Shown here piece by piece: positions 6,950 to 59,689 of a DNA stretch of 64,000 bases. A program made the position numbers and the translations under genes. The notes beneath the pieces were generated by a model. It searched no databases. It saw nothing but the letters and a program-made list of their open reading frames with translations, and was not told where the DNA came from. Numbering within the stretch: position 1 is the first letter of the stretch; the number at the start of each line of letters is the position of its first letter. The stretch comes from an uncultured bacterium (GTDB taxonomy: Bacteria; Oederibacteriota; JAAXVQ01), in assembly GCA_964604705.1 (NCBI GenBank), contig CAZSAP010000013.1:21388-85387 (forward strand), given 5' to 3'.

Positions 6950-6973
6950 TCCTTTTACGTTCCAAACGCGTGC

Positions 6974-7378: not shown

Positions 7379-7398
7379 GAAATGGCCTCCTTTTGTCC

Positions 7399-7811
7399 TT
7401 AAAGGGACAGTTGATGATCGAGCGCCTGGTTGACCAGACGATCTGCCTCCGCATTTTGCGCTCGCGGTATATGCACAATTTGACAGGCTTTAAACGTCTT
7501 CAACGCCAACTTGACTTGCCCCCATAGAACCTGCAACTTTGGATCCTTCACTTTATACTGACCGTTGATCTGGCGCACAACCAACTCTGAGTCCAAATGA
7601 ATTTTTAGCGTTTCCATCGCATGATCTTTGGCCAGAGCCAAACCCAACAAGACGCCCTGATACTCTGCCCAATTATTGGTAGTGGTTCCCAAATACTCCC
7701 CACGTCCTTCAAGCTTGGACCCATCCGCCGCATACAGCACGGCTCCTGCGGCACCGGGACCTGGATTTCCGCGTGACCCACCGTCGCAAAAGAGCGATCC
7801 TTTTAAATATG

Positions 7812-7821
<10 letters not shown>
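7399..7821 (-). CDS. rnhA: Ribonuclease HI
   Basis: Motif CDGGSRGNPGPG followed by E...D...D catalytic residues. 140 aa. Confidence 0.85.
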
Positions 7822-10356
<2,535 letters not shown>

Positions 10357-12370: not shown

Positions 12371-12512
12371 TGGTTCACCGTCGGCTTTCTTATGGTCATA
12401 CCCTTGCCTGCCTTTGGGTCCAGCATTAGCTTCAAACGCGTCATGCACCCGATCGGAATCATCTGCTTAGCTATCGTCTGTATCGGCCAAACCACGTTAA
12501 CGTTCCCCGCGC

Positions 12513-21528: not shown

Positions 21529-21544
21529 ATACCCTCCGCCCGAC

Positions 21545-29254: not shown

Positions 29255-29378
29255 GCGATGAACCCTTATGTTCAAGCGACGCTCCTTGATCACTGTCCCA
29301 ACACCAAACCTATTACATTCACGTTTACAAAAAGCCTGTGGGAGTCGGACCTCATGTCCGGCTCCCACAGGCTGGTGA

Positions 29379-41920: not shown

Positions 41921-41936
41921 GTACGTCTCCTTTTCT

Positions 41937-43694
41937 TTAGAAGTAAACCGAGATGGACAAGCGGTAGTCGCCGAACTTAACCAAATCATAGATAGCCGTC
42001 ATGTCGACCTGAACATCCTTGGTCGGCCACCACGTCGCGCCATGATAGAGCGCATTGTTGTGGTAGGTCTGCAAATAACCAGAATTCACTTCGTCAAAGT
42101 TGTTTTGCGTCGCTGCGGTCTGGGCTGATGACCCATTGGCGTAGTTGGTCTGTGTGATCTGCGGCTGACGCGCCGTCACCTGCGTATCGTTGCTGTATTC
42201 ATGCGTGGTGATGGTATGCATGGCGCCGAAACGGATCGGCAAGTTTTCCATGAGGTTGATCACCAAACCAACCGGAAGCTCGATGTTGTTGTAGATGCTG
42301 CGTGTATTGGCCTCGCTGGTGTAGCCGCCGGTGGTCACCGCTGTGTAGTCGGTGGCCGTGCTGCCCGTGCCACTGACTGTCCGCGTGGACGAGTACGTGT
42401 TGGTGGTCTTCACTTTGCTGATCGTGGAAGTACCGGTGAACTTAATGCCCATGCCGAACTTGGTGTTCTTGGCAACCTGGTACTGCCCGCGCACACCCAA
42501 GGAGTAAGAGCTGTCGTCGGTCTTGCCTTCAAACTTGTCGTTGTCGGCAACGTCGGTCTGATCCACTTGCAAGAGCGTGCCGTTCGGCGTGCGAGTGCGG
42601 ACCATGGTGGTGCGGTCTTGCTTGGCATCGGCAATGGTCGACGGGACCATTTGGAAACCGCCTTCACCGATAAGCACGAAGTTGCTGCTCATGGTGTAAT
42701 CGCCGCGGAGGCCGATGCCCACACCCACGCCCGAACCCGGATAGCCCAAGCCGTTTTCAATGCCGTTTTCCTTGTACTGAGAAACTTTATCCGCAACTGC
42801 GTTCGGATTGTAGTTGATGTTCTGATCAAGCTGGTAGGTGTACTTGTTGGTTCTGCTCCGGAAGATCGGGGTCAGGTTGACCACCGCATCCAGGTTGGAG
42901 ATCATCTTGGCGGCACGTGCGGCCAAGGTGACCTTGGTATCCATGCTACTGCGTTCCAAGGACCCGGTGGTGCCTTGGGTAAACTCAAAGGTCTTGGCAC
43001 CGGTGATCAAGTTGGTCTCGGTCCAGCGCAGGCTCTGGTCAAACGACGGACCGATCAAAAGTCCGGCGTACTGTGCGACCAAAGCATTCACACCCAAATA
43101 ACCTGGGTTGTAGGTGTACTTGGTGCCGCTGCCCTGCACGCGCAAGGCCGCACCAAAGTCCAGACCACCCAGATCACCCAAGCCATAGGCCACATAGACA
43201 TCGGTGTCGTTGTAGGAGTAGGTTCTTTTTTCACGTCCGTACTTCTCAGTCTTGGCATCGTAGATGCCATCGGTGTTGGAATCACGGTAGTTGACCAACG
43301 CGGATTCAATAAAGCCATTTCCGCTTTGCGACTCACCACCGGCATAGCCGTTGTACGCTGTTTCAAAACTATCCGAACCGTACCAGTCAAAGATGAACCC
43401 TGCACGGCCTACGCCCATGGCCGAAACCTGCGTACCCAGCAAATAGCTGCTGGTGCCGGGGTTGCCATTCACTTGCTCATCGCCCCCGGTCACATGGTTG
43501 GATAACTGGGCCCACAAGGTGTTTCTCTGCAGGCTGGGGAGATACGCCGGGCTGTATTTGAAGAAATCATAGTTGTCTTCAAAGATGCCTGCGGTTGAGT
43601 CTGATGTAAACGAAGTATCCTTTGTTGCCGAAGCCAATCCGGACATAGAGAGAAGCATTGTCATTGCCAAAACGCCACTTAAGAGCTTTTTCAC
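41937..43694 (-). CDS. Hypothetical outer-membrane beta-barrel protein (porin-like)
   Basis: Signal peptide MKKLLSGVLAMTMLLSMSGLASA. Alternating amphipathic strands. C-terminal ...RLSISVYF ending in Phe. Confidence 0.5.
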   Translation of the reverse strand: MKKLLSGVLAMTMLLSMSGLASATKDTSFTSDSTAGIFEDNYDFFKYSPAYLPSLQRNTLWAQLSNHVTGGDEQVNGNPGTSSYLLGTQVSAMGVGRAGFIFDWYGSDSFETAYNGYAGGESQSGNGFIESALVNYRDSNTDGIYDAKTEKYGREKRTYSYNDTDVYVAYGLGDLGGLDFGAALRVQGSGTKYTYNPGYLGVNALVAQYAGLLIGPSFDQSLRWTETNLITGAKTFEFTQGTTGSLERSSMDTKVTLAARAAKMISNLDAVVNLTPIFRSRTNKYTYQLDQNINYNPNAVADKVSQYKENGIENGLGYPGSGVGVGIGLRGDYTMSSNFVLIGEGGFQMVPSTIADAKQDRTTMVRTRTPNGTLLQVDQTDVADNDKFEGKTDDSSYSLGVRGQYQVAKNTKFGMGIKFTGTSTISKVKTTNTYSSTRTVSGTGSTATDYTAVTTGGYTSEANTRSIYNNIELPVGLVINLMENLPIRFGAMHTITTHEYSNDTQVTARQPQITQTNYANGSSAQTAATQNNFDEVNSGYLQTYHNNALYHGATWWPTKDVQVDMTAIYDLVKFGDYRLSISVYF

Positions 43695-44060: not shown

Positions 44061-44450
44061 TTACGGTGTTTTGTCTCTATCCAATTTGGCCTCAGCTTCA
44101 GCCATAGACCCGGCTTGATCCAGTTCAGCGGACGTATACGCCTCTTTGCCCACGCGGTTGAGTTGCAGTTGGGCCGTAACGTGCGATTGGTTCACCACGC
44201 GGATAACCCGGCGTACGCTTCGGTCCTGAATGGCTTTTTGCGCACGCTGAATATGCGCCAATCCAGCCTGGGACGTAGGTTTGAATTCCGAAATATCATT
44301 GATCACATCAAATCCCGGCTTTAGCTTTTTCAACTCGTGAATCACTTGATCCGCGGCTTTTTCCATCATGTCATCGGTGAGAAATCCCTTCAAACGGATG
44401 TACAAACGGTTTTTATTCACATCACTGTGGGATTCGTAAAAACTTTCCAT
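44061..44450 (-). CDS. Hypothetical small protein, possibly STAS-like
   Basis: Start at MESFYES (ATG 44450) with an AGGAG Shine-Dalgarno. The fold assignment is tentative. Confidence 0.4.
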   Translation of the reverse strand: MESFYESHSDVNKNRLYIRLKGFLTDDMMEKAADQVIHELKKLKPGFDVINDISEFKPTSQAGLAHIQRAQKAIQDRSVRRVIRVVNQSHVTAQLQLNRVGKEAYTSAELDQAGSMAEAEAKLDRDKTP

Positions 44451-44536
44451 AAGGCGACTCCTTCTCAACTTCCTGAGAATCATTTCTGACCTTAAGTATC
44501 GGAAAATCGCTTTTAAAATTAAGTTTTAAACCTATT

Positions 44537-46039: not shown

Positions 46040-47020
46040 TCAAAAGATTTTCCAACCGAACAATTTAACCCGCAAGGTCTTTTGGGGACATTTTTCCACA
46101 CAGCGAAAACAATGAATGCATTCCGGCTGGTCCACGTAGCGGTCTGACTTGTCGTGATACACCCGCGTGGATTCCACGGGGCACACATTGGCGCAGACCC
46201 CGCAGCGGGCGCAGGCTTCCCATGTTTTCTCCTTGGTCACAAGCTTCCCGCGGTTAAACAACGAGATTAAAATCCCGTTCGGACAAAAGCTGCACCAAAT
46301 GCGGTTTACGAAAAACGAGGCCAGAAAAAAGAACGTGAACAACGTACTCACAATGAACAGCACCAGGAAAATGGGGCGCCACAAGTCGGCAAAAATCGGA
46401 TACCCGGTCATGAGCGAGTACACAGTGCGGGCCGGACAGATCTGGCAGCCGACCAAATACAGTCCATCCCGCACGGCCCAAGGCAGGGATTGAATCGAGG
46501 CCACCCAGGAAAAAATCCCCACCAGGACCATAAGCGCCAGGCCGGCGTTGCGCAACTGCACCCGCTGATGCTCGTTCACTTTAATTTCCGAAACATGCAG
46601 GCTTTTGCGTAAATGTCCCAACAGATCCTGGATAAACCCCATCGGACACACCCAACCGCAGGTAAGACGCCCCAACAACACGGCCAGCACAACAAATACC
46701 ACCAAATAGGGGATCCATATGCGTATCGGGTCCATCCACGAGATGGATTCCTGAATAAAATGAAACGTACATCCCCGAAACGCACCGAGGCCGCGGGCAT
46801 ACCGGCACGTTTTAAACGGCAAATACATGTTAAACGTTTGCTTTTTCGGCGGCGCACTCTTGGTGGCCGACATGGGCTTAAACTCAGCCGGGGTCTCGGC
46901 CACCACAAAAATAGAGGGGAGCGGGATTTTCTTACCCTGAAAAATCGTGGCCCCGCCATAAACAATCAGCACCAGAAAAATGATTTGTATAATTGTGCGG
47001 AGCACGGAGATGCGTTTCAT
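46040..47020 (-). CDS. NapH/MauN-type membrane polyferredoxin, copy 1
   Basis: TM region with CGWVCPMGF and CSFCPNGIL (CX3CP motifs). A C-terminal pair of 4Fe-4S motifs CARCGVCANVCP and CIHCFRCVEKCP. Start assigned at MKRISVLRT (47020); the track ORF start overlaps the activase by ~105 bp. Confidence 0.75.
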   Translation of the reverse strand: MKRISVLRTIIQIIFLVLIVYGGATIFQGKKIPLPSIFVVAETPAEFKPMSATKSAPPKKQTFNMYLPFKTCRYARGLGAFRGCTFHFIQESISWMDPIRIWIPYLVVFVVLAVLLGRLTCGWVCPMGFIQDLLGHLRKSLHVSEIKVNEHQRVQLRNAGLALMVLVGIFSWVASIQSLPWAVRDGLYLVGCQICPARTVYSLMTGYPIFADLWRPIFLVLFIVSTLFTFFFLASFFVNRIWCSFCPNGILISLFNRGKLVTKEKTWEACARCGVCANVCPVESTRVYHDKSDRYVDQPECIHCFRCVEKCPQKTLRVKLFGWKIF

Positions 47021-47028
47021 AAAGGGAG

Positions 47029-47808
47029 TTATCCCAACCGCTGGGCTTCCAACGCCGATCCCAACGAATTCACAAACTGCGGTATCTCGGGAATGTACAG
47101 CTTCACACCCAGCTTGCTCTCCATGGCCGCGCACAAGCCAATGTTCTTGGCTCCGCCGCCGTTGAACGAGACAATCTCGCGCAAGCCCAGCTTTTTGGCC
47201 ATGGCAAACATGCGCTCGGCTATGGAATGATGAATCCCGGCCACAATGTCTTCTTTTTTCACATCTTGCGCCAAGAGCGATATGACCTCACTCTCGGCAA
47301 AGACCGTGCACGTGGCGTTGATGGTAATCGAGGTCTGCGATTTAAGCGAGAGCTCGCCCAAATCCTCCAAGCGCACTTCCAAGGCATGCGCAATCACTTC
47401 TAAAAAACGCCCGGTTCCGGCTGCGCATTTATCGTTCATGACAAAGTCGGTGATCTCACCGTTTTCATCCAAGGTGATCACCTTGATGTCCTGCCCACCC
47501 AAGTCAATGATGGTCCGCACCTGCCCGCGTGGACTGCCTAAGAAACTCGTGCCTTTGGCACAGGCTGAAATCTCGGTAATGGTCTTGTCTCCGAACTCCA
47601 CGACCCGACGGCCGTAGCCCGTGGAAACCATACGCTCTACCGCCGCGCGCTCAATCCCCGCCTTTTGCAACGCCAGCTCCAGCACCGTATTGGCGCTGTT
47701 CTTGGGACGGCTCCCGGTGGGGACCACCGCCGTGGCTAAAATATCCTTATCGCTTAAAATCAAGGCCTTGGTGGCCACCGAACCAATATCGACACCGGCT
47801 GTAATCAT
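47029..47808 (-). CDS. BadF/BadG/BcrA/BcrD-type ATPase: activase of 2-hydroxyacyl-CoA dehydratase / double-cubane-cluster protein (HgdC/DCCP-R-like)
   Basis: 259 aa with an ASKHA fold. N-terminal GVDIGSVATKALI and the Cys pair region DKCAAGTGRFLE, typical of a [4Fe-4S]-bridging activase. Confidence 0.85.
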   Translation of the reverse strand: MITAGVDIGSVATKALILSDKDILATAVVPTGSRPKNSANTVLELALQKAGIERAAVERMVSTGYGRRVVEFGDKTITEISACAKGTSFLGSPRGQVRTIIDLGGQDIKVITLDENGEITDFVMNDKCAAGTGRFLEVIAHALEVRLEDLGELSLKSQTSITINATCTVFAESEVISLLAQDVKKEDIVAGIHHSIAERMFAMAKKLGLREIVSFNGGGAKNIGLCAAMESKLGVKLYIPEIPQFVNSLGSALEAQRLG

Positions 47809-49064
47809 CGCATCATCTCCAAGAAGGCTTCCACCCGCGTACGCAACTGTTCGACATCCTCTTGCCCGTAGTCCGTATGCAGGGTCAGCATGGGTATTTT
47901 TTTATCCTTCAACACTCGGTTTACCAAATCGCGCTCCATATCAAACAACTGGCAGAGCCGCAGATCGTGATAGATCACACCGTTGACTTGAAAATCCTCG
48001 GACATTTTAAGCAGCTTGTCCACCCGGTCGTACGAGCTGGCAAAGCACGGGCAGGTGGTGGGAAACAAGTACCGCGACGCCAAGGCTTCCACCATGCCGT
48101 CGACGGTCCACTCGTCGGGCTCGGGGTAATCCCAGAGACGCTGGTGCCCGGAACACATTTCGTCGGCCACCACCGAAGCGCCCAGTTCCTCAATCAAGTT
48201 GAGGATCTTAAAATTCGGCCAGATCACGGGCGCGCCGGTAATCAACAGCTTCTTAGTGGTCTCAGTATGTGAGCCAGAAACCGCGGCGGTCATTTCCTTG
48301 AGCAACACCTCGGCCTGCGCCACCCACGTGGGAACATCGGCATAGAAGCTGGCCTGGATCATCATCAGCCAATCGGAATGCGAGATCACGCCGGGATGTT
48401 TACGGCGGAGCTCGTACAACGCGCGGTACAGTTTGGAGCGTTTCTGAAAAAGTTCGATCGCTTCCTTTAGTTTCTTCCGTTCCAGCTTCTTTCCGGTCCA
48501 GGCCTCCAACTTGCCCTTGAGCCGCTTGATTTCCTGGAGCCAAAAGGGTTTGACCGTCTCGTAGTCCTTGGTCGACGGTAGGTTGAGCAACCAGACCGGT
48601 TTGTAATCGGCCAGGTATTCACCCAACTTGGTCTTGGCATCGCAGGTCGTGGGTAAAATGATCAGATCGCATTCATCAAAGTATCCGCCGCCCACGATGG
48701 CCGAACCTAAGGTGGACTTAACCAAGGGACAAATGTCACGCGGCAGCACCTCTTCCGAAGGAGCTATTGTCTCGGAGGTCCCGCTGCAGAGCCGCACCGG
48801 GATAATGTCCATGGCCCAGAGCAATTCCTCGGGTACAAAATAGCAGTAGGTGCCGGCGATTCTTTTCTCGGTGGCGCGCAGGGCCTGCAAGCGCTCATCG
48901 GTGGTGAACATGCGTTCAAACGCACTCAACGCCGCCATGCGGTTCGGTTGTTTCTGCAAGCGCTGCGCCAATTCCGTTGAGGCATCGCGCAGGGCCTGCT
49001 GAATTTTTTCCGAAGGGCGCCGGACCGGCGTCCGGGGGTACCGTTTCTCAAAATCTGTGTGCAT
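47805..49064 (-). CDS. 2-hydroxyacyl-CoA dehydratase / BcrC-BadD family (HGD-D, PF06050) single-subunit protein, double-cubane-cluster-protein-like
   Basis: Conserved Cys-containing segments ICPLVKS, TTCDAKTK, DEMCSG and TTCPCF. About 420 aa from ATG at 49064. Overlaps the activase start by 4 bp. Confidence 0.7.
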   Translation of the reverse strand: MHTDFEKRYPRTPVRRPSEKIQQALRDASTELAQRLQKQPNRMAALSAFERMFTTDERLQALRATEKRIAGTYCYFVPEELLWAMDIIPVRLCSGTSETIAPSEEVLPRDICPLVKSTLGSAIVGGGYFDECDLIILPTTCDAKTKLGEYLADYKPVWLLNLPSTKDYETVKPFWLQEIKRLKGKLEAWTGKKLERKKLKEAIELFQKRSKLYRALYELRRKHPGVISHSDWLMMIQASFYADVPTWVAQAEVLLKEMTAAVSGSHTETTKKLLITGAPVIWPNFKILNLIEELGASVVADEMCSGHQRLWDYPEPDEWTVDGMVEALASRYLFPTTCPCFASSYDRVDKLLKMSEDFQVNGVIYHDLRLCQLFDMERDLVNRVLKDKKIPMLTLHTDYGQEDVEQLRTRVEAFLEMMR

Positions 49065-49075
49065 GCGCAAACTCC

Positions 49076-50080
49076 TTATGATCGAAAAATCGGAATGCCG
49101 AAAAACTTTACGGTCAGGCATTTCTTCTCTGGGCACAAATCCACACACCGGTAGCACTGAATGCACTGGGCATGATCCACGACCCGGCGTTTTTTTTCCG
49201 CGTACACACTCACCGACTCCATGGGACAGGCATCCGCGCAAATGGCGCATTTGGTGCACAGCACCGCATCCTTCTCCTTGGTGAGCCCGCCCCCGCGGTT
49301 GAAAAACGAGAGAATCACCCCGCCCGGACAGAGCTTGCACCAACTACGCTTAAACACGGCACTGGACACGTACAGCAGGGTAAAAACCATGAGGAGCACA
49401 AACAGAGTCACCAACAAGGTGGTGGACGCCCCAGGAAACTGCAGATTGATCATGATTGGAAAACCGGTGATGAGCGGTGTGATCAACTTGGATGGACACA
49501 CCTGGCAGGTCGCAAGATAGAGCGGTTTTTTTATGCTCCAGGCCACGGCCGACCAAGAAATCGCCCACGCACTCACCAAGAGCAAGGTGGTCAACACATA
49601 GCCGCCGGCCTTAAGTGTTTCCAACATCCAAGCCGGCAGCTTAATCCGCGCCCAACCCAGCCACCGCCGAACCTCGGTGAACATTTCAGAGATAAAGCCG
49701 ATCGGGCACAACCAACCGCACCAGAACCGGGCCAACAACACCATAAGCGCGATTAAAAGCGCCAGACTCGGCAAGATCACTTTCAAGGGCGGGCGCCAGG
49801 TCAACGTGTCCGAAAAAAAGTACATGAGGCAGCCGCGGAAGGTGCCCGTCGTTCCCGCAAACCGGCAACTGCGGCCGGGTAAAAACGTCTGAAACGGCTG
49901 GGTCCAGGTAGGATTGGCGTAAAGCAATTCGGTCATCTTCTGGTTCTTGCCGTCGAGTGAATACCACTTGATCTCCTGCGGCTTCAAATCCAAGAGGGTC
50001 GCTCCATAAAAAAGAAACAGGAACGAGAGCACCTGCACCACTCGCCGCGACCATGTAATCTTATGCAGAACCATACGCAC
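49076..50080 (-). CDS. NapH/MauN-type membrane polyferredoxin, copy 2
   Basis: TM region with CGWLCPIGF and CKLCPGGVI. C-terminal CTKCAICADACP and CIQCYRCVDLCP. Paralogue of the 46040-47020 ORF. Confidence 0.75.
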   Translation of the reverse strand: MRMVLHKITWSRRVVQVLSFLFLFYGATLLDLKPQEIKWYSLDGKNQKMTELLYANPTWTQPFQTFLPGRSCRFAGTTGTFRGCLMYFFSDTLTWRPPLKVILPSLALLIALMVLLARFWCGWLCPIGFISEMFTEVRRWLGWARIKLPAWMLETLKAGGYVLTTLLLVSAWAISWSAVAWSIKKPLYLATCQVCPSKLITPLITGFPIMINLQFPGASTTLLVTLFVLLMVFTLLYVSSAVFKRSWCKLCPGGVILSFFNRGGGLTKEKDAVLCTKCAICADACPMESVSVYAEKKRRVVDHAQCIQCYRCVDLCPEKKCLTVKFFGIPIFRS

Positions 50081-50456: not shown

Positions 50457-51392
50457 TCATTTCTTCTTCACATCCAGGTTCATTTCTTGAACCGCAAACA
50501 CATTGCGGCTGGACGTGCGCCCATCCAAAGCGATTTTGTACGTGCCCGGCGCCACGCCTTTTTTCACAACCAGCTCCACCTCAAACTCCGCCACCTGCCC
50601 GGGCGAGAGTTTCTTGACACTGGCCGGCTTCACCACCACGTCAAACGCATCGCTCTTCGCGGTTAGGACAATGTTGTTCAATTCATTGAAAACATTATTC
50701 TTCAGATGCACTTCAAACTTACCTTTTTGCACGATCGAGGCAGGCACACGCGAAAGGCTCAAGCCTAAATTCTGGGCCGCCGCTCCGCCACCCGGTCCTT
50801 CCAAGTTCCCTTCGTAAATCGTGGCTCCGCGTGAGGTGACTTTAAAATCCATGGGAAATTTCCCGGACTTCCAATCGTCTTTGAGCTTGAGCTTAACCGT
50901 GTAATACTCACGCTCACCCGCGACCAAGCGGCGCAAAGACGCCGGATCCACCTCGGTATCAAACGCCGGGCTGACGGCCTGCAGCTTTACATCAAACAGA
51001 TCCCGGGGAGATTTGTTCACGATGTATGTACGGAACTCGCCCTTACGTCCAATAATCTTCAGCTGACTGGTCTCAGGGATGAGCACAATGTTGTCCGGGC
51101 TGGTCTCATCGGCGCCGGCCTGCGGGCCTGTGTCTCCGGGCAAGCGCGCACCCGTACTCATGGCATTGGGGGCTGCCGCCGAGGGAGAAGATCCCGGTCC
51201 GCCGGGTTCCCCAGGCGCAGGCGGGGGGGGCGGTGGCGCCACTGTGTCCGGTGCTCCCGGGGACCCGGGCGCGGCACCGACACTTCCAGGGTTGGGGCGC
51301 CACGGATCGTCGCAGGCATGCCCGAAACACACGCTGGTGCACGCGGCACTCAATACACACATCACACCCAAACCCATCATTGTCTTTTTCAT
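50457..51392 (-). CDS. Hypothetical secreted protein with a Pro-rich linker
   Basis: Signal peptide. A PPPPPPAPGEPGGPGSSP linker, then a beta-rich C-terminal domain. Confidence 0.5.
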   Translation of the reverse strand: MKKTMMGLGVMCVLSAACTSVCFGHACDDPWRPNPGSVGAAPGSPGAPDTVAPPPPPPAPGEPGGPGSSPSAAAPNAMSTGARLPGDTGPQAGADETSPDNIVLIPETSQLKIIGRKGEFRTYIVNKSPRDLFDVKLQAVSPAFDTEVDPASLRRLVAGEREYYTVKLKLKDDWKSGKFPMDFKVTSRGATIYEGNLEGPGGGAAAQNLGLSLSRVPASIVQKGKFEVHLKNNVFNELNNIVLTAKSDAFDVVVKPASVKKLSPGQVAEFEVELVVKKGVAPGTYKIALDGRTSSRNVFAVQEMNLDVKKK

Positions 51393-51445: not shown

Positions 51446-52522
51446 CTAGGGTTTCTTCGGTTCCAAGTATTTCACTTTCGCCGCCGTGTACTCGGCATAG
51501 CTTACATGCGGCAAGCCCGCGCCATCTAAAACCAACGAGGCATACGCCCCCACATCCCCAGTTGCATCCAGCACACTCACCTTCCACGTCGTTCCTTGTG
51601 CTTGGGCATACTTCAGATGTTTTTTTCCGTGATCGTAGTATACCATGTGCGCCCGTCCTTGCGCATCCAGGCGCAAACGCACATAACGCCCCACATCCCC
51701 ATCTTTATCCACCGTGGTTTTGTTCCACTGCTTGCCGTCCCACACCGCGTATTTTAAGGCGGCGGTACCGGCATCGTAGTAGGCTATGCGCGGGAATCCC
51801 TGAGCATCCAATGCCAACGACGTGAACATCCCCAGGGTCTTTTCCGTATCCACGGTCTGAATATCCCAACCCGTCCCGTTCCAAGCCGCGTACTTCAAGG
51901 CATGCTTGCCCCAATCACTGTAGGAAATATGCGGACGATCCTGCGCATCCAGCGCCAGTGAGGTAAACATACCCACGAAATCCTTGAAATCCACGCGTTC
52001 GGTTTTCCAGGTCTTGCCTTCGCGGCGCGCATATTTCAAATCGTAGTTGGTCCAGTCAAAGTAACTGATGCACGGCACGCCCTTGGAGTCCAACGCCAGG
52101 GATGCATACGTCCCTTCGTATCCGGGTGCATCCACCAGCTCGGTCCGCCATTTTCCGTTTTCGAGTTCAGCATATTTCAAGTCTTTGTTCTTCCAATCAA
52201 AATACGCTACGCACGGCTGCGCTTGCGCGTCCAAGACCATGCTTACATACGTGCCAAAATTGCCACCCTGGTCCACGTTCTGCACCGACCACTTCCCCCC
52301 CTGGCGATGCGCCAACTTGAGCGCATAATCCCGCCAGTCGCAATACGCCACATAGGGTTCTCCCTGGGGATCCAGCGCCAGCGCCGTCTCCTGCCCCTTG
52401 ACCAACGCATCCGGGTCGGCCAACTCCACCTGCCACTGAGGGGCACGTGCACAGCCGACGATCAGCATCAGTCCAATCACCATCCAACCATACTTCAACG
52501 CATGTTTGTTCGCCTTCCGCAT
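51446..52522 (-). CDS. Lipoprotein made of about seven tandem ~42-aa beta-propeller-type repeats
   Basis: Lipobox LIVGC. The repeat ...G.Y.SLALD..G.P.ISY.D..N..LKYA...G..W..E.VD recurs and also appears in the N-terminus of the 53567-55726 protein. Confidence 0.55.
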   Translation of the reverse strand: MRKANKHALKYGWMVIGLMLIVGCARAPQWQVELADPDALVKGQETALALDPQGEPYVAYCDWRDYALKLAHRQGGKWSVQNVDQGGNFGTYVSMVLDAQAQPCVAYFDWKNKDLKYAELENGKWRTELVDAPGYEGTYASLALDSKGVPCISYFDWTNYDLKYARREGKTWKTERVDFKDFVGMFTSLALDAQDRPHISYSDWGKHALKYAAWNGTGWDIQTVDTEKTLGMFTSLALDAQGFPRIAYYDAGTAALKYAVWDGKQWNKTTVDKDGDVGRYVRLRLDAQGRAHMVYYDHGKKHLKYAQAQGTTWKVSVLDATGDVGAYASLVLDGAGLPHVSYAEYTAAKVKYLEPKKP

Positions 52523-52587
52523 AACGCCTCCACCTTTAAAAGCTTTTCCGCGAACCGCTATTTCGTTCTTCTGGGTATGAGACGTAG

Positions 52588-53565
52588 CTAAAACCCCACA
52601 CTCAACGTCACGAGATGGTTCGCCCCAAACGTCCCCATGCTGGCAAACGCATAATCCAGCCGCACGCTGCCCAAGGCGGCCCCGCCGCCGGCGGTCAATC
52701 CCGCCAGATCGTAGCCTGCCTTGTAACCTAAGCGGGCAAAGAGCATATCCCTAAACCCATACTCCACACCCGTGTGAAATTTGAAATCCTGATCCAACGG
52801 CTTTACGACTTCGGCACTGCACGCCAACCCATGCTGCTTAACCCAGAGCCAACGGTACGCAGCTCCGGCTTGCAGCGTGGTGGGCAGCAAATCCCCCTCT
52901 TGATCGTACTTGAGTCGCGGCCCCAAATTTTCAACCGCGAGGCCGATGTGCAAATCACGCCACACCTTGTACGCCACGCCACCGTCCAAGGCCACGGTCA
53001 AACCCGAATACGCTTCGGCCAAGCGCGAGCTCAGCACTTTGACATTGATACCGGCGCAATTCTCCCCGTACATGCGCATACTCCCGGAAAGCGTGAGCAC
53101 ATAGTCTTGAAGCGCCTTGACCGAATGCTCGCTTCCATCCCCCAAGGTATAATCAAGTTGCCCGGCATCAAAGTACGCAACACTGACCCCCCAGGCCGAA
53201 GCCGGCGAGGCCGGCATGCCAAACGCCAGGGCCGTATACGCGGAATCATCCAAAGTCTTGTAGTACGTTGCGCTCACCTGCGGTCGACTCAAGCGCTGCA
53301 AGCCGGCCGGGTTAAAATAAACAGCATCCAGATCCGCGGCCAACGCCGTGTAAGCTTCACCCAGCCCCAGTGCCCGTGCGCTGGCCGGGTACGTCAACAC
53401 CCGCGCACCGCTGACCAACCCGGCGTGGCACAGGGCAGGAAGCATGCCACTTCCCATCAATCCCAACAGGATCCAAACCTCAATACAACCTCTCAACCCC
53501 CGGCCCAAAGAACGCCTATGGGAAGCACGCGAAGTCAACTGTGTGTGTTGGTTACAATCGTTCAT
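52588..53565 (-). CDS. PorV/PorQ/PorP-like outer-membrane beta-barrel (short form, 325 aa)
   Basis: Family motif ALGLGEAYTALAADLDAVYFNPAGLQRLS. Ends ...TLSVGF. Lies immediately downstream of two CTD-bearing cargo genes. Confidence 0.6.
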   Translation of the reverse strand: MNDCNQHTQLTSRASHRRSLGRGLRGCIEVWILLGLMGSGMLPALCHAGLVSGARVLTYPASARALGLGEAYTALAADLDAVYFNPAGLQRLSRPQVSATYYKTLDDSAYTALAFGMPASPASAWGVSVAYFDAGQLDYTLGDGSEHSVKALQDYVLTLSGSMRMYGENCAGINVKVLSSRLAEAYSGLTVALDGGVAYKVWRDLHIGLAVENLGPRLKYDQEGDLLPTTLQAGAAYRWLWVKQHGLACSAEVVKPLDQDFKFHTGVEYGFRDMLFARLGYKAGYDLAGLTAGGGAALGSVRLDYAFASMGTFGANHLVTLSVGF

Positions 53566-53566
53566 G

Positions 53567-55726
53567 TCATTTCACCACGCATATCTTCTTCCGGGTATGC
53601 ACGCCCGGAAGCTGAATGTCGACGAAGTAGATCCCGCTGGCCACGGTCTGGTTGTCCTTATTCACACCCGTCCAGATTTCCTGATGCACCCCGGCTTCAC
53701 GTCGTCCGTCCACCAACGCCTTCACCATCACGCCGTCGAGGCTGTAAAGCTTGATGACCACGTTCCCGGGTTGCGGCAGCGTGTACCAGATGCTGGCATG
53801 CTCGCCCAGCAGCGGCTTGAACAATCCGCCGATGATTTTCACTTCTTGTGGAAATACAGACCCCTTCACCGCGATGAAATCCTCGGCACTCAATCCCTTA
53901 GCCAAGGCCTGCGCAGTATATATTTTTCTCGCAGGTTCAAACACCCAACCGGCTGCTTGCGGCTCAAGCGTGATTGGTTCATAGGGCAATCCCGTCAAAA
54001 CATATTGTCCGTTGCTTCCGGTAATAGCTGCAACCGAGATGGAATTACCCCGTGCTTGTACGGTGATATTGGGAACGGCCACTCCTTGCGAATTTCGGAC
54101 GGTCCCTTGGGCTGTATAGACTACGCCCGGGAGCATGGCGGCAAATCCCTGGCTGTCTTGACTGGCACCCAACGAAGCGTACGAACGTGTGGCAGGCGTG
54201 AACGAATACCCAGTTAGCGAGGGCGTGATGGTATAGTTGCCGGGTGATAGATTCACAAACTCGTAATAACCTGTCGTATCCGTAGTATAGGTTCCTTGCG
54301 AACCACCGGACAAGGTTACAATCACTTGCTTGCCCACTTGATTTCCAGCTGCATCCGTAATGTAGCCGCGAATAAAATAACCGCTGCCTGGAATAATGGT
54401 GAAATCCTGGCTGGTCTGATTCTGACCCAAAGGTGCATAGGTTCGTTGAGTAGGTGAAAAAGACCAGCCCGCCAGAACTGGAATCACGCTTACATTCCCA
54501 GCCGGTACTTTTTCGAAAACATAGCTCCCATCGCTTTTGGTCACGGTGTTGGCATGAATCGCCCCGCTGGTTAAGAACATGTACACGCCTGCCTTGGGTA
54601 CACTCGCACCATCACGAACCACACCGCTGATGGTGTAGACACCCTCGATCCAACGCGCAAACTTTAAATCCTTATTGGTTACATCGTAGTAGGCTATAGC
54701 TGGAGATCCCGAGGAATCTAATTTTAAAGAAGTAGTAAAGCCCACAGCCCCCGATGCATCCACCACGCTCGGAATCCAAGCGCCGGAGCTGTTGGTCGCG
54801 TATTTAAGATGCCAACGGGTGAAGTCCAAGTAACTGATGTGTGCAGCGGTACCCTGCGTAGCAATGGACGTGTCGCCGCCAACGGAATAATCATTATCCA
54901 CCTTTTGTTTAGTCCAGGAACTGCCATTGAAGTAAAAATATTGGAGAAAACGGTAATTTACATAATCGGCACCACTCGTGCTTATTGTATTACTGCATGC
55001 ACTAATGTGCGGATTTCCGCTTGTGTCCAGTGCCAAAGAAAGAAATGCGCCTTCATTGTTTCCTTGGCCTGTCGGCTTATTAGCCGTCCAACTTCCCGCT
55101 GGCCCATTATAGTAAGATACTTCTTTATCGTTGTTGTACGCAGCCACATGCGGCACACCGCCAGTATCAAGCGCCAGAGAATGTTCCTGAGGGTCGTTGC
55201 CTAGGGGCAGCGAGCTCACGCCCCAAGACGTTCCGTTAAAGTAACCATATCTCAAACTTCCAGAACTAACATAGGTCACATGCGGACGCTGCGAGGCATC
55301 CAACTTTAGAGATGGGGAGGGGATCTCCGAAGACATGCTGGTGCCAACCAGTGTAGGGCTGCTCCAGGCGCTCCCGGTCCACTCAGTATACCGCAGCTCT
55401 GAGGCACTGGTGCGAAAAGCAATGCAGGGATAGTTACTGCTGTTACGGGCAATGGACGTGCCATTACCCCCGGCAGTTGCACCTACCGTCTGCACACTCC
55501 AGGCCGAACCGTTATGGTAGGCATATTTTAACCGATTGTTTGTATAATCATAGTAGCTGATCATAGGATGATTTCCACTGTCCAGTGCTAGCGACGAGTA
55601 CCATCCCACATCGCCGGTCGTGTCCACGGTCTGCACGTCCCAGACTGCAAAACTGTTTACTGCCAAAATAGCCAAAGCTGAAAACAGCAACCCACAAAAC
55701 AGTTTGGATCTCTTCCTGGTTCTCAT
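53567..55726 (-). CDS. Secreted protein with N-terminal propeller repeats, carboxypeptidase-regulatory-like domains and a T9SS-type CTD
   Basis: Signal peptide. The N-terminal repeats are shared with the lipoprotein at 51446. G.V.D..G CarbReg-like units. C-terminal ...VVIKLYSLDGVMVKAL...SGIYFVDIQLPG...KKICVVK. Confidence 0.6.
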   Translation of the reverse strand: MRTRKRSKLFCGLLFSALAILAVNSFAVWDVQTVDTTGDVGWYSSLALDSGNHPMISYYDYTNNRLKYAYHNGSAWSVQTVGATAGGNGTSIARNSSNYPCIAFRTSASELRYTEWTGSAWSSPTLVGTSMSSEIPSPSLKLDASQRPHVTYVSSGSLRYGYFNGTSWGVSSLPLGNDPQEHSLALDTGGVPHVAAYNNDKEVSYYNGPAGSWTANKPTGQGNNEGAFLSLALDTSGNPHISACSNTISTSGADYVNYRFLQYFYFNGSSWTKQKVDNDYSVGGDTSIATQGTAAHISYLDFTRWHLKYATNSSGAWIPSVVDASGAVGFTTSLKLDSSGSPAIAYYDVTNKDLKFARWIEGVYTISGVVRDGASVPKAGVYMFLTSGAIHANTVTKSDGSYVFEKVPAGNVSVIPVLAGWSFSPTQRTYAPLGQNQTSQDFTIIPGSGYFIRGYITDAAGNQVGKQVIVTLSGGSQGTYTTDTTGYYEFVNLSPGNYTITPSLTGYSFTPATRSYASLGASQDSQGFAAMLPGVVYTAQGTVRNSQGVAVPNITVQARGNSISVAAITGSNGQYVLTGLPYEPITLEPQAAGWVFEPARKIYTAQALAKGLSAEDFIAVKGSVFPQEVKIIGGLFKPLLGEHASIWYTLPQPGNVVIKLYSLDGVMVKALVDGRREAGVHQEIWTGVNKDNQTVASGIYFVDIQLPGVHTRKKICVVK

Positions 55727-55775
55727 ACGTAGTTCCTCCCAATGCGAGGGGGTTTCCTAACTTCACTTACCAATC

Positions 55776-58448
55776 TCACTTGATAACCGCCGCTTTGCTC
55801 CAAGCCTTGTAATCCGCACTTTGCAAGCTAACGATATAGATCCCACTTCCGACTACCTCACCTCGACTGTTTTTTCCGTCCCAAACAATTTCGTGAAACT
55901 GTTCTTTTACAAACAACTTATTGTCGGCCAAGGTGGTTATCTTATCTCCCACCATATTGTAAATGACCAGAGTAACGGACGCATCGGAAAATTGATACCA
56001 ACGAATTCGCGCTTGCTCTCCGTGACTTGGATTGATTTGGCTGTGTAGGATCTTCAAGCACTTTTCATAGTCACGGGTGCTGTCAAAAGCAGAACTGGTT
56101 GCAGTTGGCGTTGGTGTGTTGGCCGTCTTAGGTTGAAGCTGATAGATATGGTTGTTTGCAGCTAAAGCGTATACTTCAAACTGGTTATCGTTATTGCCAT
56201 CACCTACAGCTACCCGATAAATAGGCGAAGGAACCACACCCAAGTCTGTGGTCGCCCATTGATTCGTATATTTAAACTGGTACACGTGGGCGTCTGTCCC
56301 AGCGGCATAAACCTCGTCTTGGCCGTCGTTGTCGGCATCATTAACCACGACAGAATGCACTTCCTGCGTACTACTCCCCAAGCCGGTGGCGGACCAAGAG
56401 GTGATTTGCCATTTAAATTGGTAGACCTTGCCGTCTTGATTGGCTCCGTAGACTTCCATTTGACCGTCATGGTTGCCGTCACCTACGGCCACAGCATACA
56501 TTTCGCCCAAACCAAATCCCACGGAAGATTTGATCCAAGAAACGCCGTTATATTTAAACTGATACAGCGCCCGGTCGGCATTGCCGCCATAGACTTCCAG
56601 TTCACCGTCGCCGTTTCCATCTTCACAGGCCACAGCGTACATTTGTCCGACCCCAAACCCCAGATCCGTGCGCTGCCAAGTAGGATTTTTCACAAACTGA
56701 TACACATGCCCATCGGCACATGCTGCGTAAATTTTTTGATAACCATCACCGTTTCCATCTCCTGCAGCCAATGAGTATATCTTATCGTTGGTCGTAGCGC
56801 TCTGCCCCACTAGGGTCTTATCCCAGCTTGTACCATTAGCTTTGAATTGATATATATGGTTATCCAAGGTAGCTCCATAAACTTCCGCTTTGCCGTCTTG
56901 ATCCGCGTCGCACACTAAAGTACTGGAGTAAAATTCACCAGATACCGTACTTGTTGGGTACGACGTTGTTCCCCACACGTTTCCAGTTTTCTTTACGTTC
57001 GTAATTTTTAGGTCCCGATTGCAGGTTATCAATTCCTGCAGTCCATTATTGTCTGCATCTCCAATATCCAACCCGTAAAAAATCCCGGATAAGGAAGGAG
57101 TAGACAGCTGAGCGCAATCCGCTAGCTCCCAGCGTACCGGTCCTGTCAAAGGATCAAGTACAATAAATGCTTTTTCAGAAGTAACGACCGCTCCATCGTC
57201 GTTTAATTGTAAATCGTACACGCCGGGCACTGTAGGCAAGCTAAACTCACACGTTAACTTCGAGACACTTACTCTCTGAACATTGGTGGCACCTACGATT
57301 GCCGAGCTGCCGACCAATTTAACTTGAACATTGGGATTATAAAACTCGCGGCCTCTGACAGTGGCCGAAAGAGTTGTGTCAATTGTCCCATGTTTTTTGG
57401 ATATATCTGAGGTGAAGAACTTTTCAGCGAAACTAAAGAATGGGCCTTGAGCGGAGATAAACATCTTTTTCCTTTTGAAAAACAAACCTTCTGGCGAAGT
57501 CAAGCTTACATTTCCATCACCTATTGTATTTGATGTCATCGAAGAATGGCCAATAACAATGTCGGCGGCAATACCATTGCCGGAGGGAATCGTATTATAT
57601 ATCAGCGCTCTATTATTTCCCCGATCTACAGTAAAAAGCCTAACCCCATCACTAAAGACATCTCGCGGTTCAGAATATTTATACGCATTTGTTCCGGTGG
57701 AGTTTTGGAGCATGTCCGTTTGACCAACTACAATATCTGCACTCGCATTGTTCACAGTCGGGATACTATTATAAATAAGTACCCGGTGGTTTCCTGAATC
57801 GACAATAAATAGCTTCCCGTTAACTGTATAAGCACTCCATGGGGTATTGAACTTCTGCGCAGTAGTTCCACTACTATTTGTTGTCATTGAAGATTGGCCG
57901 ATCACCACATTTGCGTTTGCATTATTATTAGTTGGAACTGTATTGTATATTAAAACGCGATGGTTACTGCTGTCACAAATAATTAACCGTGTTCCATCTG
58001 TACATACTTGGGTAGGCTTGTAGAGCGTATTTGCTGTAGGATTACTCAAGCCTTGATTCGCTGTGTTGTTAGTTAAATTCGTCTGCCCAATCACTAAACT
58101 TGCTGTCGCGACATTGCTGTTGGGTATCGGATCAAAAATCAGGACACGGTTGTTGTTACAGTTCGTTGCAATAAATTTATTATTAACAACTGTCAAACCA
58201 CCCCAATTATAGTTCGAGTATCCACTTAGTGTGACATCAGGTGTTTCAGATCCTGTGGTTGGAAACTGATTATAGATATAGTAGTAGCCGCTCCAGTTGC
58301 TCAAGTATATCTTCGTTCCATCAGAATAAATTTTCCCAAACCCTGTACTAAGTTGGACATCTGCCGCCGGATCGTTTTCAAAGCCATATAATAGTCCTGC
58401 CGAAAACAGACCTGCTAAAAGCACAAGCGAAGCAATGCTCTTTTTCAT
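55776..58448 (-). CDS. Secreted NHL-repeat plus FG-GAP/VCBS-repeat protein with a T9SS-type CTD
   Basis: Start at MKKSIASLVLLAGLFSAG (ATG 58448). NHL-like repeats (NHRVLIYN three times). FG-GAP-like D.D.DG..E.Y repeats (GDGNGDGYQKIY, EDGNGDGELEVYGG, GDGNHDGQMEVYGA, NDADNDGQDEVYAAG). CTD ...VTLVIYNMVGDKI...SGIYIVSLQS...KAAVIK. Gene GC is markedly lower than the window average. Confidence 0.6.
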   Translation of the reverse strand: MKKSIASLVLLAGLFSAGLLYGFENDPAADVQLSTGFGKIYSDGTKIYLSNWSGYYYIYNQFPTTGSETPDVTLSGYSNYNWGGLTVVNNKFIATNCNNNRVLIFDPIPNSNVATASLVIGQTNLTNNTANQGLSNPTANTLYKPTQVCTDGTRLIICDSSNHRVLIYNTVPTNNNANANVVIGQSSMTTNSSGTTAQKFNTPWSAYTVNGKLFIVDSGNHRVLIYNSIPTVNNASADIVVGQTDMLQNSTGTNAYKYSEPRDVFSDGVRLFTVDRGNNRALIYNTIPSGNGIAADIVIGHSSMTSNTIGDGNVSLTSPEGLFFKRKKMFISAQGPFFSFAEKFFTSDISKKHGTIDTTLSATVRGREFYNPNVQVKLVGSSAIVGATNVQRVSVSKLTCEFSLPTVPGVYDLQLNDDGAVVTSEKAFIVLDPLTGPVRWELADCAQLSTPSLSGIFYGLDIGDADNNGLQELITCNRDLKITNVKKTGNVWGTTSYPTSTVSGEFYSSTLVCDADQDGKAEVYGATLDNHIYQFKANGTSWDKTLVGQSATTNDKIYSLAAGDGNGDGYQKIYAACADGHVYQFVKNPTWQRTDLGFGVGQMYAVACEDGNGDGELEVYGGNADRALYQFKYNGVSWIKSSVGFGLGEMYAVAVGDGNHDGQMEVYGANQDGKVYQFKWQITSWSATGLGSSTQEVHSVVVNDADNDGQDEVYAAGTDAHVYQFKYTNQWATTDLGVVPSPIYRVAVGDGNNDNQFEVYALAANNHIYQLQPKTANTPTPTATSSAFDSTRDYEKCLKILHSQINPSHGEQARIRWYQFSDASVTLVIYNMVGDKITTLADNKLFVKEQFHEIVWDGKNSRGEVVGSGIYIVSLQSADYKAWSKAAVIK

Positions 58449-58483
58449 CCGTGACAATCTCTGCATGTCCTCTCCTCCACCCA

Positions 58484-59689
58484 TCATTGCCAATAGAAAT
58501 TCGAGACAAACCCCAGCGTATACACTTCCCGCTGATAGCTGTAGTAGTAGTCGTTGGATTGGCTCTGGATGTAGTTGTACCCCAAGCGCAGCATCCAGGG
58601 AGCGCCGAGCCATTCGCCCAAGCGCTGGTTGACCTCCACCAGTACGTTGTATTCCTTATCGCTGCGGTTGGAGGTCAGGATGCGCCCTTGGGCATCCTGG
58701 GCCCTCCGCCCCGAATACGCCCGGGTGGTCACGGCCGTGTTCATCCGCACGTAACTGTTCTCGCGGCCGTAACAATAAAGACCGCTTAGGTTCACACAGT
58801 GATTCTGGCGGTCGTAGTAACCCGCTTCCAAGTCCACGGCGCCGGTGGTCAGATCGTAGACCAAGGCATTGGCATTGGAGTTCACACGTCCGAAGCCGTA
58901 TCCGAAACGGACATTGGAATTTTTCAAGAATTTCCAGGAGAGTGACGTATTAAAATTAAGTTCCTGATCCTGGCGTCGCTCGGAAGTGAAATCGCGGTCA
59001 TGCGCGCTGGCGTACAGGGGGCGTTCCGGGCACACATTGTTGACCCAAACCGCGCCCAATTCCAAATCAAGGGCCCAGGGCAAACCTTGCTTCACGGTGG
59101 CGTAGGCGCCGGTCCCGTTGTATTCGGCGACTTCTTCCATGAACGTCAAGCTGGCGGTCCAGCCCTCGTGCATGAAATTATAATTGGGCAGCGTGTAGAC
59201 TTGATACTTGACGCCCGCTTCCCAACTGGTGAAATCCCAAAAAAACGTGTAGTAGCGAAGATTGGCGGCCGCCACCCAATTCAAATAATTGTATTTGGAC
59301 GATGTGCTGTCGGGGTAGGCGTAGTACGTGCCTTGCGCGGAAAGTCCGGCGACCATGTCCGCAATCAGGTCTTCTTCCAGCCCCAGATTCACACTGTTGC
59401 TCAAATAATTTTTTCCGGTCCAGCGGTTGTACGCGGCATCACGAAAAAAATAATTGGCCAGGTAATGTGTGTTGCGGGACCATTTATCCTTATGATTGAG
59501 TTTCACTTCGGTGAGGGCATACGAATCGCTGTACGGCATGACGTACGAATAGATGTTGCTGTCTCCGGCTCCGGTGAGCGAGGTCTCCAACCAGGTCGCA
59601 CCCTGCACGGTCGATGCCGCACCTACCCACCCCAGCACGATCAAGAACCAAGCCCAGCTCTGTTGGCAATACCGGCGGCCTACGTGCAT
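58484..59689 (-). CDS. Hypothetical outer-membrane beta-barrel protein
   Basis: Signal peptide (WAWFLIVLGWVGAASTVQGA). Y/N/S-rich alternating strands. The C-terminus ends ...SNFYWQ. Confidence 0.5.
   Translation of the reverse strand: MHVGRRYCQQSWAWFLIVLGWVGAASTVQGATWLETSLTGAGDSNIYSYVMPYSDSYALTEVKLNHKDKWSRNTHYLANYFFRDAAYNRWTGKNYLSNSVNLGLEEDLIADMVAGLSAQGTYYAYPDSTSSKYNYLNWVAAANLRYYTFFWDFTSWEAGVKYQVYTLPNYNFMHEGWTASLTFMEEVAEYNGTGAYATVKQGLPWALDLELGAVWVNNVCPERPLYASAHDRDFTSERRQDQELNFNTSLSWKFLKNSNVRFGYGFGRVNSNANALVYDLTTGAVDLEAGYYDRQNHCVNLSGLYCYGRENSYVRMNTAVTTRAYSGRRAQDAQGRILTSNRSDKEYNVLVEVNQRLGEWLGAPWMLRLGYNYIQSQSNDYYYSYQREVYTLGFVSNFYWQ

Follow-up and report, generated by a model that had tools for sequence, protein, structure and literature searches.

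A conserved envelope gene cluster that looks like type IX secretion sorting, yet falls beyond the phyla in which this system is known, and that carries an inserted AT-rich gene

In the secretion system of type IX (T9SS), PorV acts as a shuttle for cargo proteins with type A C-terminal domains (CTDs), and cognate PorP/SprF proteins, linked to their cargo at the gene level, act as shuttles or anchors for type B cargo (PMC5562754, PMC12618676, PMC9143113). A single PorV is said to serve all type A cargo in Bacteroidota (PMC12618676). The T9SS with its PorV shuttle, one PorV for all type A cargo, has been regarded as specific to the Fibrobacteres-Chlorobi-Bacteroidetes (FCB) superphylum. Here, we describe a cluster of envelope genes in an uncultured bacterium that suggests a different arrangement. 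The cluster lies on a 64,000-nucleotide stretch of contig CAZSAP010000013.1, the whole of which we call the window, and it looks like type IX secretion sorting, yet outside the phyla where the T9SS is known. The host falls outside the FCB superphylum, its syntenic and closest relatives being metagenome-assembled genomes (MAGs) of candidate division FCPU426 and Ca. Goldiibacteriota, and the FCPU426 16S cluster has been equated with Goldbacteria by Doud et al. (PMC7031533). We consider it likely that the cluster is a conserved five-gene envelope operon (barrel, cargo, PorV-like barrel, lipoprotein and NEW3 protein) into which an AT-rich gene has been inserted, that its CTD proteins reach the surface by a T9SS-like form of display, and that the host is an uncultured Gram-negative bacterium of the Goldbacteria/FCPU426 type.

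A preliminary description of this DNA had placed five minus-strand genes here, and all five were reproduced at the same coordinates in our list of open reading frames (ORFs). The genes of the module and their parts, in the order of transcription, are as follows.

58484-59689, minus strand: rare beta-barrel gene (401 aa) at the start of the conserved module, with a signal peptide and about 16 long predicted strands
55776-58466, minus strand: inserted AT-rich NHL/FG-GAP/CTD gene (890-896 aa), delimited by Pfam matches, GC content at third codon positions (GC3) and synteny
57264-58331, minus strand: NHL propeller of the inserted gene, spanning about aa 40-395, the segment with the lowest GC3
56064-56996, minus strand: FG-GAP propeller of the inserted gene, spanning about aa 485-795, with repeats of 47 aa (141 nt)
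55779-56033, minus strand: CTD encoded by the inserted gene, roughly its final 85 aa, from CTD alignment A4
53567-55726, minus strand: conserved cargo (719 aa) with predicted propeller, CarboxypepD_reg domains and CTD
54647-55642 (predicted propeller), about 53867-54634 (three CarboxypepD_reg domains) and 53570-53845 (CTD), minus strand: parts of the conserved cargo
52588-53565, minus strand: PorV/PorQ-family outer-membrane barrel (325 aa), from model NF033709
51446-52522, minus strand: repeat lipoprotein (358 aa) with a lipobox and seven 47-aa repeats
50457-51392, minus strand: putative lipoprotein (311 aa) with a Pro-rich linker and a NEW3/NPCBM_assoc beta-sandwich, from its NPCBM_assoc match

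Both cargo proteins begin with a Sec signal peptide that can be read directly from the sequence (MKKSIASLVLLAGLFSAGLLYG and MRTRKRSKLFCGLLFSALAILAVNSFA) and end in an Ig-like sorting domain whose profile matches the CTDs of PorU, PorZ and T9SS cargo, which bears out the earlier recognition of two CTD cargos in this cluster. The two CTDs share with a third protein of the window the pattern NP..G....I.y......V.i.iY...G..V..L......G.h...W.G.N..G..v.sGIY.v.........K...[VI][VI]K. When a profile of 15 CTDs (alignment A4) was compared with the PDB, the best match was the CTD of PorU (6za2, residues 1062-1141; E = 4.4e-5), and the profile also matched the PorZ CTD (5m11; E = 0.005) and the CTD of a Flavobacterium johnsoniae cargo solved with SprA/PorV (8glk_D; E = 0.0097); FlgD Ig domains, which ranked after PorU, scored similarly. 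All 15 of the CTDs tested matched TIGR04183 at E <= 1, the best at 2.3e-7. Taken in isolation, the CTD of the NHL protein matched the CTD of the PorU sortase (E = 1.6e-5) and reached 17.6 bits against TIGR04183 (cut-off 23), and the 719-aa cargo reached 14.7 bits against the same cut-off, with a sub-threshold match to FlgD_ig. By these matches, the cargo CTDs are remote homologues of T9SS CTDs, and the NCBI name of some homologues is already "T9SS type A sorting domain-containing protein."

Within the family of NHL/FG-GAP proteins, a canonical type A CTD (APNPvrG...NGVYL...KKIAlvK) and an FlgD_ig-like CTD are found at the identical position in different members. Since this is the same position in orthologous proteins, the two kinds of CTD are probably functionally equivalent tags, and the exchange suggests that they are interchangeable, a natural domain swap. 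The members of alignment A4 on the two sides of this swap are P0008, P0036, P0037 and P0053 versus P0005, P0013, P0014 and others.

The preliminary description had called the 325-aa protein a PorV/PorP-like barrel, and the PorV half of that name has stood: the protein scored 156.2 bits against the PorV/PorQ family model NF033709 (cut-off 90) and 32.7 bits against Pfam PorV (cut-off 27), and it matched the F. johnsoniae PorV structure (PDB 6h3i_F) at E = 2.4e-6. The PorP half has not, with no match to the PorP/SprF model TIGR03519 at E <= 0.1. At the level of equivalogs, the barrel fell below the cut-offs for PorV (NF033710; 69.7 versus 250), PorQ (NF033711; 94.5 versus 220) and likewise PorV2. 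Its start codon lies 1 nt after the stop codon of the cargo gene, and the two are probably translationally coupled. This close spacing bears on a different role that might be proposed for the barrel, that of a FadL-type importer of hydrophobic substrates serving the downstream polyferredoxin and 2-hydroxyacyl-CoA dehydratase-like (HGD-D) genes instead of partnering CTDs. PorV itself sits within the FadL-like superfamily, weak Toluene_X and UPF0164 matches are present, and three relatives (L085-L087) keep the Fer4, HGD-D and BcrAD genes in synteny with the module. However, the PorV/PorQ model outscores Toluene_X by 156 bits to 17.7, the start codon abuts the cargo stop codon, and PorV-family genes adjoin CTD-cargo genes in many unrelated loci that have neither Fer4 nor HGD genes, so we regard an importer as improbable and a PorV/PorQ-type partner of the CTDs as the better reading.

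Pairs of this kind are found elsewhere, both in the window and in the lineage. Three further genes of the window are relevant.

12513-15566, minus strand: second cargo of this kind (1017 aa), which has eight CarboxypepD_reg domains and whose type A CTD clears the curated cut-offs
10448-12448, minus strand: second PorV/PorQ-family barrel (666 aa) with C-terminal TPR repeats, directly downstream of the 1017-aa cargo
25158-27404, minus strand: barrel-FlgD_ig-OmpA fusion (748 aa), an outer-membrane protein

The CTD of the 1017-aa cargo scored 34.7 bits against PF18962 (cut-off 27) and 33.1 bits against TIGR04183 (cut-off 23), and the barrel that follows it scored 139.3 bits against NF033709 (cut-off 90), along with UPF0164 and TPR matches. 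Among loci of the NHL/FG-GAP family, 10 of 17 had a PorV-family gene within the fetched flank, often directly adjoining the cargo gene, compared with only 6 of 62 other loci (Elusimicrobia, FCPU426 and Firestonebacteria are named among the six). All of the neighbouring barrels tested passed NF033709, at 98-171 bits, and some were fused to OmpA-like domains. A CTD-cargo gene beside a PorV-family barrel gene is thus a recurrent arrangement in this lineage. The 748-aa protein has a FadL/PorV-like barrel that scores 52 bits against the PorV family model, below its cut-off, an internal FlgD_ig-like domain (35.7 bits; cut-off 27), a C-terminal OmpA-like peptidoglycan-binding domain and a faint similarity to the PorE family; possibly, a barrel has here been joined to a CTD-like domain and a cell-wall anchor of its own.

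Compared with the type A branch of the T9SS in Porphyromonas gingivalis and F. johnsoniae, the window cargos are alike in combining a Sec signal peptide with an Ig-like C-terminal domain of about 85 aa that ends in K, and the window barrel is alike in passing the PorV/PorQ family model and matching PorV (6h3i_F). They differ in that the host is outside the FCB superphylum, the barrel reaches neither the PorV nor the PorQ equivalog, the CTDs resemble FlgD_ig and do not reach the type A cut-offs, and the T9SS core is not seen in the window. Unlike the single PorV of Bacteroidota, at least three PorV-family barrels are encoded within these 64 kb, and both of those above the family cut-off directly follow a cargo gene. 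One barrel gene per cargo gene is instead a feature of type B systems (SprB-SprF and PG1035-PorP-PorE; PMC12618676, PMC9143113), and the fusion of some PorV-family barrels to OmpA-like or TPR domains recalls the PorP-PorE pairing. Unlike type B systems, the barrels here are of the PorV/PorQ and not the PorP/SprF kind (one barrel of locus L002 reached only 20.9 bits against TIGR03519, cut-off 90.55), and the CTDs resemble type A and FlgD_ig domains. Since only type B cargo are said to have gene-linked partners in Bacteroidota, the arrangement is a variant of the known scheme.

Under our preferred reading, both CTD proteins would be exported by Sec and would then cross the outer membrane by a T9SS-type route, and the PorV/PorQ-family barrel would receive, and possibly hold, the cargos at the surface through their CTDs. 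Such a barrel-CTD pairing would mirror the PorV-PorU, PorQ-PorZ and PorP/SprF-type B pairs of Bacteroidota, and the cell surface would in this way come to display ligand-binding propellers. Judging by domain type, the propellers may function in adhesion or ligand binding, and the NHL/FG-GAP protein could be an adhesin, as had been suggested.

We compared the gene order of the module with that of four relatives. Locus L085, the closest of them, reads MprF-TM, barrel, cargo, PorV-like barrel, lipoprotein, NEW3, small ORF, Fer4, HGD-D and BcrAD, with a barrel 79% identical (aa) to that of the window; it comes from Joint Genome Institute data set 3300038466, as does the Ca. Goldiibacteriota DeMMO3_7 contig with P0005 (L006/L010). 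Loci L086 (FCPU426, GCA_040756875.1) and L087 have the same five-gene order as L085, and the contig of P0122 carries the first three module genes (barrel, cargo and PorV-like) before it ends. The NHL gene is absent from the barrel-cargo junction in all four, the barrel and cargo gene calls overlapping by 4 nt in L085 and lying 33-68 nt apart in the others. By blastn, window positions 60701-47024 are colinear with L085 at 67-77% nucleotide identity, with the exception of window 58473-55652, which corresponds to only 86 nt in L085. Because the gene is absent at this site in relatives with a conserved barrel-cargo order, synteny shows the NHL gene as a gene-sized insertion of about 2.75 kb into a conserved operon, in the window's lineage. 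At the left junction, a GGAGG stands ahead of the inserted gene, and the cargo gene that it displaced has a new GGGAGG in front of it.

The gene upstream of the barrel varies among contigs (MprF-TM, an Omp85 fusion or DsbD_2), and therefore the conserved unit begins at the barrel gene. Its last conserved envelope gene is the 311-aa NEW3 gene, whose product scores 30.7 bits against NPCBM_assoc (Pfam cut-off 24.4) and which is kept in L085-L087 at 52-78% identity. Orthologues of the cargo, 714-738 aa long, are present in all four relatives; the cargo is 55% identical to its L085 orthologue versus 75-88% for the neighbouring genes, and on this basis it is the fast-evolving member of the operon. 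The Omp85 fusion, a 969-aa protein at 6802-9711 of the FCPU426 locus L086, combines Peptidase_MA_2, TolB/Tricorn-like propellers and an Omp85-family barrel in an unusual architecture, and its gene lies directly upstream of the barrel gene.

The same comparisons speak to whether the operon might have had the NHL/FG-GAP gene from the start, with the relatives losing it through independent deletions. The sample comprised no more than four relatives and surface-protein genes are often lost, but this history would require at least two to three precise gene-sized deletions, each restoring barrel-cargo adjacency, would leave the compositional break described below unexplained, and would have to account for an 86-nt spacer in L085 that holds no NHL or FG-GAP remnants. 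We consider it very improbable and continue to read the gene as an insertion.

From N to C terminus, the inserted protein consists of a signal peptide, a six-blade NHL propeller, an Ig-like domain, a seven-blade FG-GAP propeller, a Thr/Pro linker and an FlgD_ig-like CTD that ends in AVIK. Pfam NHL matched at 37.7 bits (cut-off 20) and FG-GAP_3 at 48.6 bits (cut-off 26.9) in four stretches, with a sub-threshold FlgD_ig match at the C terminus. The NHL part shows invariant N-x-R-x-L ... A-x-x-V-x-G-Q columns with a period of about 58 aa, and the FG-GAP part contains direct repeats at 141-nt spacing within 56270-56662. The gene had previously been listed as 55776-58448, and its open frame extends to 58613; the better start is probably the ATG at 58466, which has a GGAGG at 58478-58474, 7 nt upstream.

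AT-richness of this gene had been noted before, with either recent horizontal acquisition or a strong N/T/S/Y compositional bias offered as the cause. We found a GC content of 39.5-46% across 55600-58400 versus 54-59% on both flanks (400-nt windows; whole-window GC 52.9%), and the per-gene values agreed, with a GC of 0.451 and a GC3 of 0.438 for the NHL gene and GC3 values of 0.66-0.71 for the barrel, PorV-like, lipoprotein and NEW3 genes and 0.55 for the second cargo gene of the cluster. To take account of protein composition, we calculated an expected GC3 for each gene from the amino acids that it encodes and from codon usage pooled over the remaining 45 genes of the window. The NHL gene was the most extreme of 47 genes, with an expected GC3 of 0.605, an observed GC3 of 0.439 and z = -10.7, and the second cargo gene had z = -4.3. 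The deficit was deepest in the NHL half (GC3 0.36-0.42 per 100 codons, z of -4 to -5.6).

Were the low GC a mere by-product of an N/T/S/Y-rich protein, and the gene native and unremarkable, GC3 should have come out as normal after this correction, and it did not. Residues N (8.2%), T (8.5%), S (8.4%) and Y (5.1%) are indeed abundant in the protein, and GC at the first and second codon positions is also somewhat low, but amino acid bias leaves the gap between 0.605 and 0.439 unexplained, and the gene is missing at the site in all four syntenic relatives; we regard this explanation as already refuted and hardly credible. Absence at the orthologous site and deviant composition, the two marks of an accessory gene, are both found in the NHL gene. 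Low corrected GC3 (z of -4.8 to -6.9) was also seen at 1218-2147, 2152-4044, 4718-6082, 20833-22104 (plus strand) and 40463-41989, genes that include some of housekeeping type (radical SAM, GidA, RsmB), an ORF without a family match and a Big_5 surface protein. Codon usage is therefore heterogeneous across the window, but the NHL gene deviates further than any of these.

AT-rich accessory or horizontally acquired genes are a general feature of bacterial genomes. The NHL gene resembles them as a gene-sized insertion that is absent in close relatives and has a GC3 below that of the resident genes; it differs from them in having no integrase, tRNA site or flanking repeats, and in that the deficit is family-wide over several genomes and graded along the gene. 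Relatives with the combination of NHL, FG-GAP and CTD are often present in multiple copies per genome, and full-length relatives (33-43% identity) were found only in FCPU426, Goldiibacteriota and allied MAGs. GC3 was below that of the other ORFs of the locus in 12 of 13 family loci (amino-acid-corrected z of -2.2 to -18.5), whereas NHL-only genes of other phyla showed no deviation from their flanks, scattering about zero. The gene is thus shown to be a member of a multi-copy accessory family of this phylum that is AT-richer at synonymous sites than the host genes. GC3 rose from NHL to FG-GAP to CTD in six of the eight full-length members. The loci with a graded GC3 that can be named are window 55776-58448, L007, L008, L011, L012 and L013.

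Of the earlier proposal of a recent horizontal acquisition, the acquisition itself has held up, given the absence of the gene in four of four relatives, and a single recent transfer has not, given the deficit shared by 12 of 13 loci. A single transfer whose donor was distant and low in GC (Patescibacteria or Elusimicrobia, for example), still unameliorated and with no property of the family involved, would fit the sharp, gene-sized compositional break and the best partial matches of the NHL part (44-50% identity), which are to proteins of Parcubacteria, Moranbacteria, Elusimicrobia and Spirochaetaceae. Yet relatives with the full-length architecture occur only in FCPU426, Goldbacteria and allied MAGs, NHL-only genes in other phyla match their flanks, and the homologues that share the deficit are so diverged (33-43% mutual identity) that they are too old for a lack of amelioration. 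We therefore consider one recent transfer unlikely and favor the family-wide explanation, under which the low GC3 would reflect horizontally exchanged accessory passenger modules under weak codon selection, joined to a host-adapted CTD end. Modular exchange of the N-terminal passenger is one idea for the intragenic gradient.

Taken further, these observations raise the rather unlikely possibility that Goldbacteria/FCPU426, and apparently Elusimicrobia and Firestonebacteria, none of which belongs to the FCB superphylum, use a distributed form of display in which each T9SS-like CTD cargo has its own PorV/PorQ barrel, possibly without a T9SS motor or translocon, and in which AT-rich passengers, in the present case NHL plus FG-GAP propellers, are exchanged horizontally, either in front of a host-adapted CTD or into cargo-barrel operons.

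Several points weigh against our reading of the cluster as a conserved operon with an insertion and T9SS-like display. Both cargo CTDs score below the curated cut-offs of TIGR04183 and PF18962. We found no SprA/Sov, PorK/L/M/N, PorU, PorZ or PorW, and likewise no PorT, among the genes of the 64-kb window or the few flanking proteins scanned, and large neighbours that lack annotation, in the window as in L002, L004 and L086, included no T9SS core proteins. T9SS genes have been stated to be absent outside the FCB superphylum (PMC11285876), and our literature search found no paper describing the T9SS or PorV in Goldbacteria or Elusimicrobia. The surface location and ligand binding of the CTD proteins are predicted from sequence, and so is the propeller fold proposed for the lipoprotein and cargo, solely from their repeats and sub-threshold Pfam matches. 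With regard to the insertion, its junctions show no flanking direct or inverted repeats, no mobility gene marks it, the window has no tRNA and no integrase, transposase or tRNA-target signature was seen, and no donor closer than about 44% aa identity was found. Searches of phage DNA gave no match, and those of plasmids gave only partial NHL and FG-GAP protein matches, at less than 60% identity.

The repeat lipoprotein and the adjacent cargo share a repeat, as previously claimed, and its period is 47 aa instead of about 42 aa. The lipoprotein carries the expected lipobox (LIVGC, in ...GLMLIVGC|ARAPQ, which fits [LVI][ASTVI][GAS]C), followed by seven 47-aa repeats over residues 30-358 with the consensus W..x.VD..G.vG.y.SLALD..G.P.I.Y.D....LKYA. 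The cargo has seven repeats of 45-58 aa over residues 29 to about 360, so that the shared region, placed earlier at the N terminus of the cargo, is present there but extends well beyond the extreme N terminus; CarboxypepD_reg matches (86.5 bits, three stretches) and a C terminus ending in VVK complete the protein. The two proteins aligned by BLASTP at 30% identity over 354 columns (E = 4e-37), which identifies the lipoprotein as a paralogue of the cargo's N-terminal domain, and seven repeats in each point to a seven-bladed beta-propeller. Both genes are kept in every relative that extends that far, and the duplication is therefore old.

Recent domain shuffling, suggested earlier as the source of this sharing, was not borne out. 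Across bacteria and archaea, over 2393 homologues of the lipoprotein's propeller carry BNR_4 or DUF7253 annotation, and homologues are fused to Por_Secre_tail, FlgD_ig, MYXO-CTERM, PGF-CTERM, PEP-CTERM or PKD; the propeller is a promiscuous, widespread surface module and no local invention. The 47-aa repeat type is the same in BNR_4/DUF7253 propellers (PF15892, PF23911) and in the window proteins, although the latter score below both Pfam cut-offs. A difference is that the propeller here occurs twice in one operon, once with a lipid anchor and once with a CTD. PDB sequence searches yielded nothing useful for the lipoprotein or for the 401-aa barrel. In look-ups of exact sequences, the lipoprotein was found only on a 4.9-kb Logan contig from ERR3839026, and the ORF of the 325-aa PorV-like barrel gave no match.

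This second barrel, as it had been labelled, had no Pfam or NCBIfam match and only 4 homologues among 5.8e9 proteins; a profile search returned 29 representatives among 1.84e9 (E <= 1e-3). An AlphaFold2 model built from 23 sequences of that search was all-beta, with about 16 long strands, a mean per-residue confidence (pLDDT) of 90.7 and a predicted TM-score of 0.83, whereas a model from 5 sequences reached a pLDDT of 49.6. Foldseek comparison of the model with the PDB returned generic barrels only (CymA, AlgE, Occ and FadL; TM <= 0.48). On the basis of this model, we are confident in predicting an outer-membrane beta-barrel of a very rare family. Members of the family (P0121-P0124, P0245-P0271) carry the strongly conserved motifs PERPLYA, SNANA and NQRLG. 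Among distant members, 3 of 23 matched SlipAM (best E = 4.3e-6) and 2 of 23 matched BBP2_2, and the window protein matched neither PF04575 nor PF10082; a possible role of the barrel in exporting the adjacent lipoprotein, as Slam proteins might, is a weak idea, with only those 3 of 23 distant relatives touching SlipAM.

Most of the individual parts are of known kinds, and the finding is incremental and defines no new category. Still, a little-studied candidate phylum appears to encode many PorV/PorQ barrels, with type A-like CTD-cargo genes often directly beside one, which offers a testable lead on the evolution of CTD recognition and surface anchoring and prompts one to ask if a PorV-CTD pair needs the complete T9SS machine in order to work. 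With the inserted gene, nature provides a clear case of a conserved operon that has taken in an accessory surface-protein gene, and the family-wide, intragenically graded GC3 deficit could be used to study the modular exchange of adhesin passenger domains.

Promoter-like and terminator-like sites in the window occurred at chance levels (10 versus 11.4 expected and 11 versus 11.9 expected, respectively), and Rfam and tRNA scans were empty. Directly downstream of the module is a minus-strand block at 46040-50080 that is conserved in L085-L087; its products are a membrane polyferredoxin (Fer4_5), a protein resembling the D component of 2-hydroxyacyl-CoA dehydratase and a BcrAD/BadFG ATPase. At the place where L086 and L087 encode a second ATPase, a second Fer4_5 gene is found in the window. 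Three further minus-strand ORFs (41937-43694, 28319-29407 and 44061-44483) have a high GC3 and look coding, with no Pfam match for any of them and no significant NCBIfam match for the first two; the first has a faint N-terminal match to TDE2508-family outer-membrane barrels.

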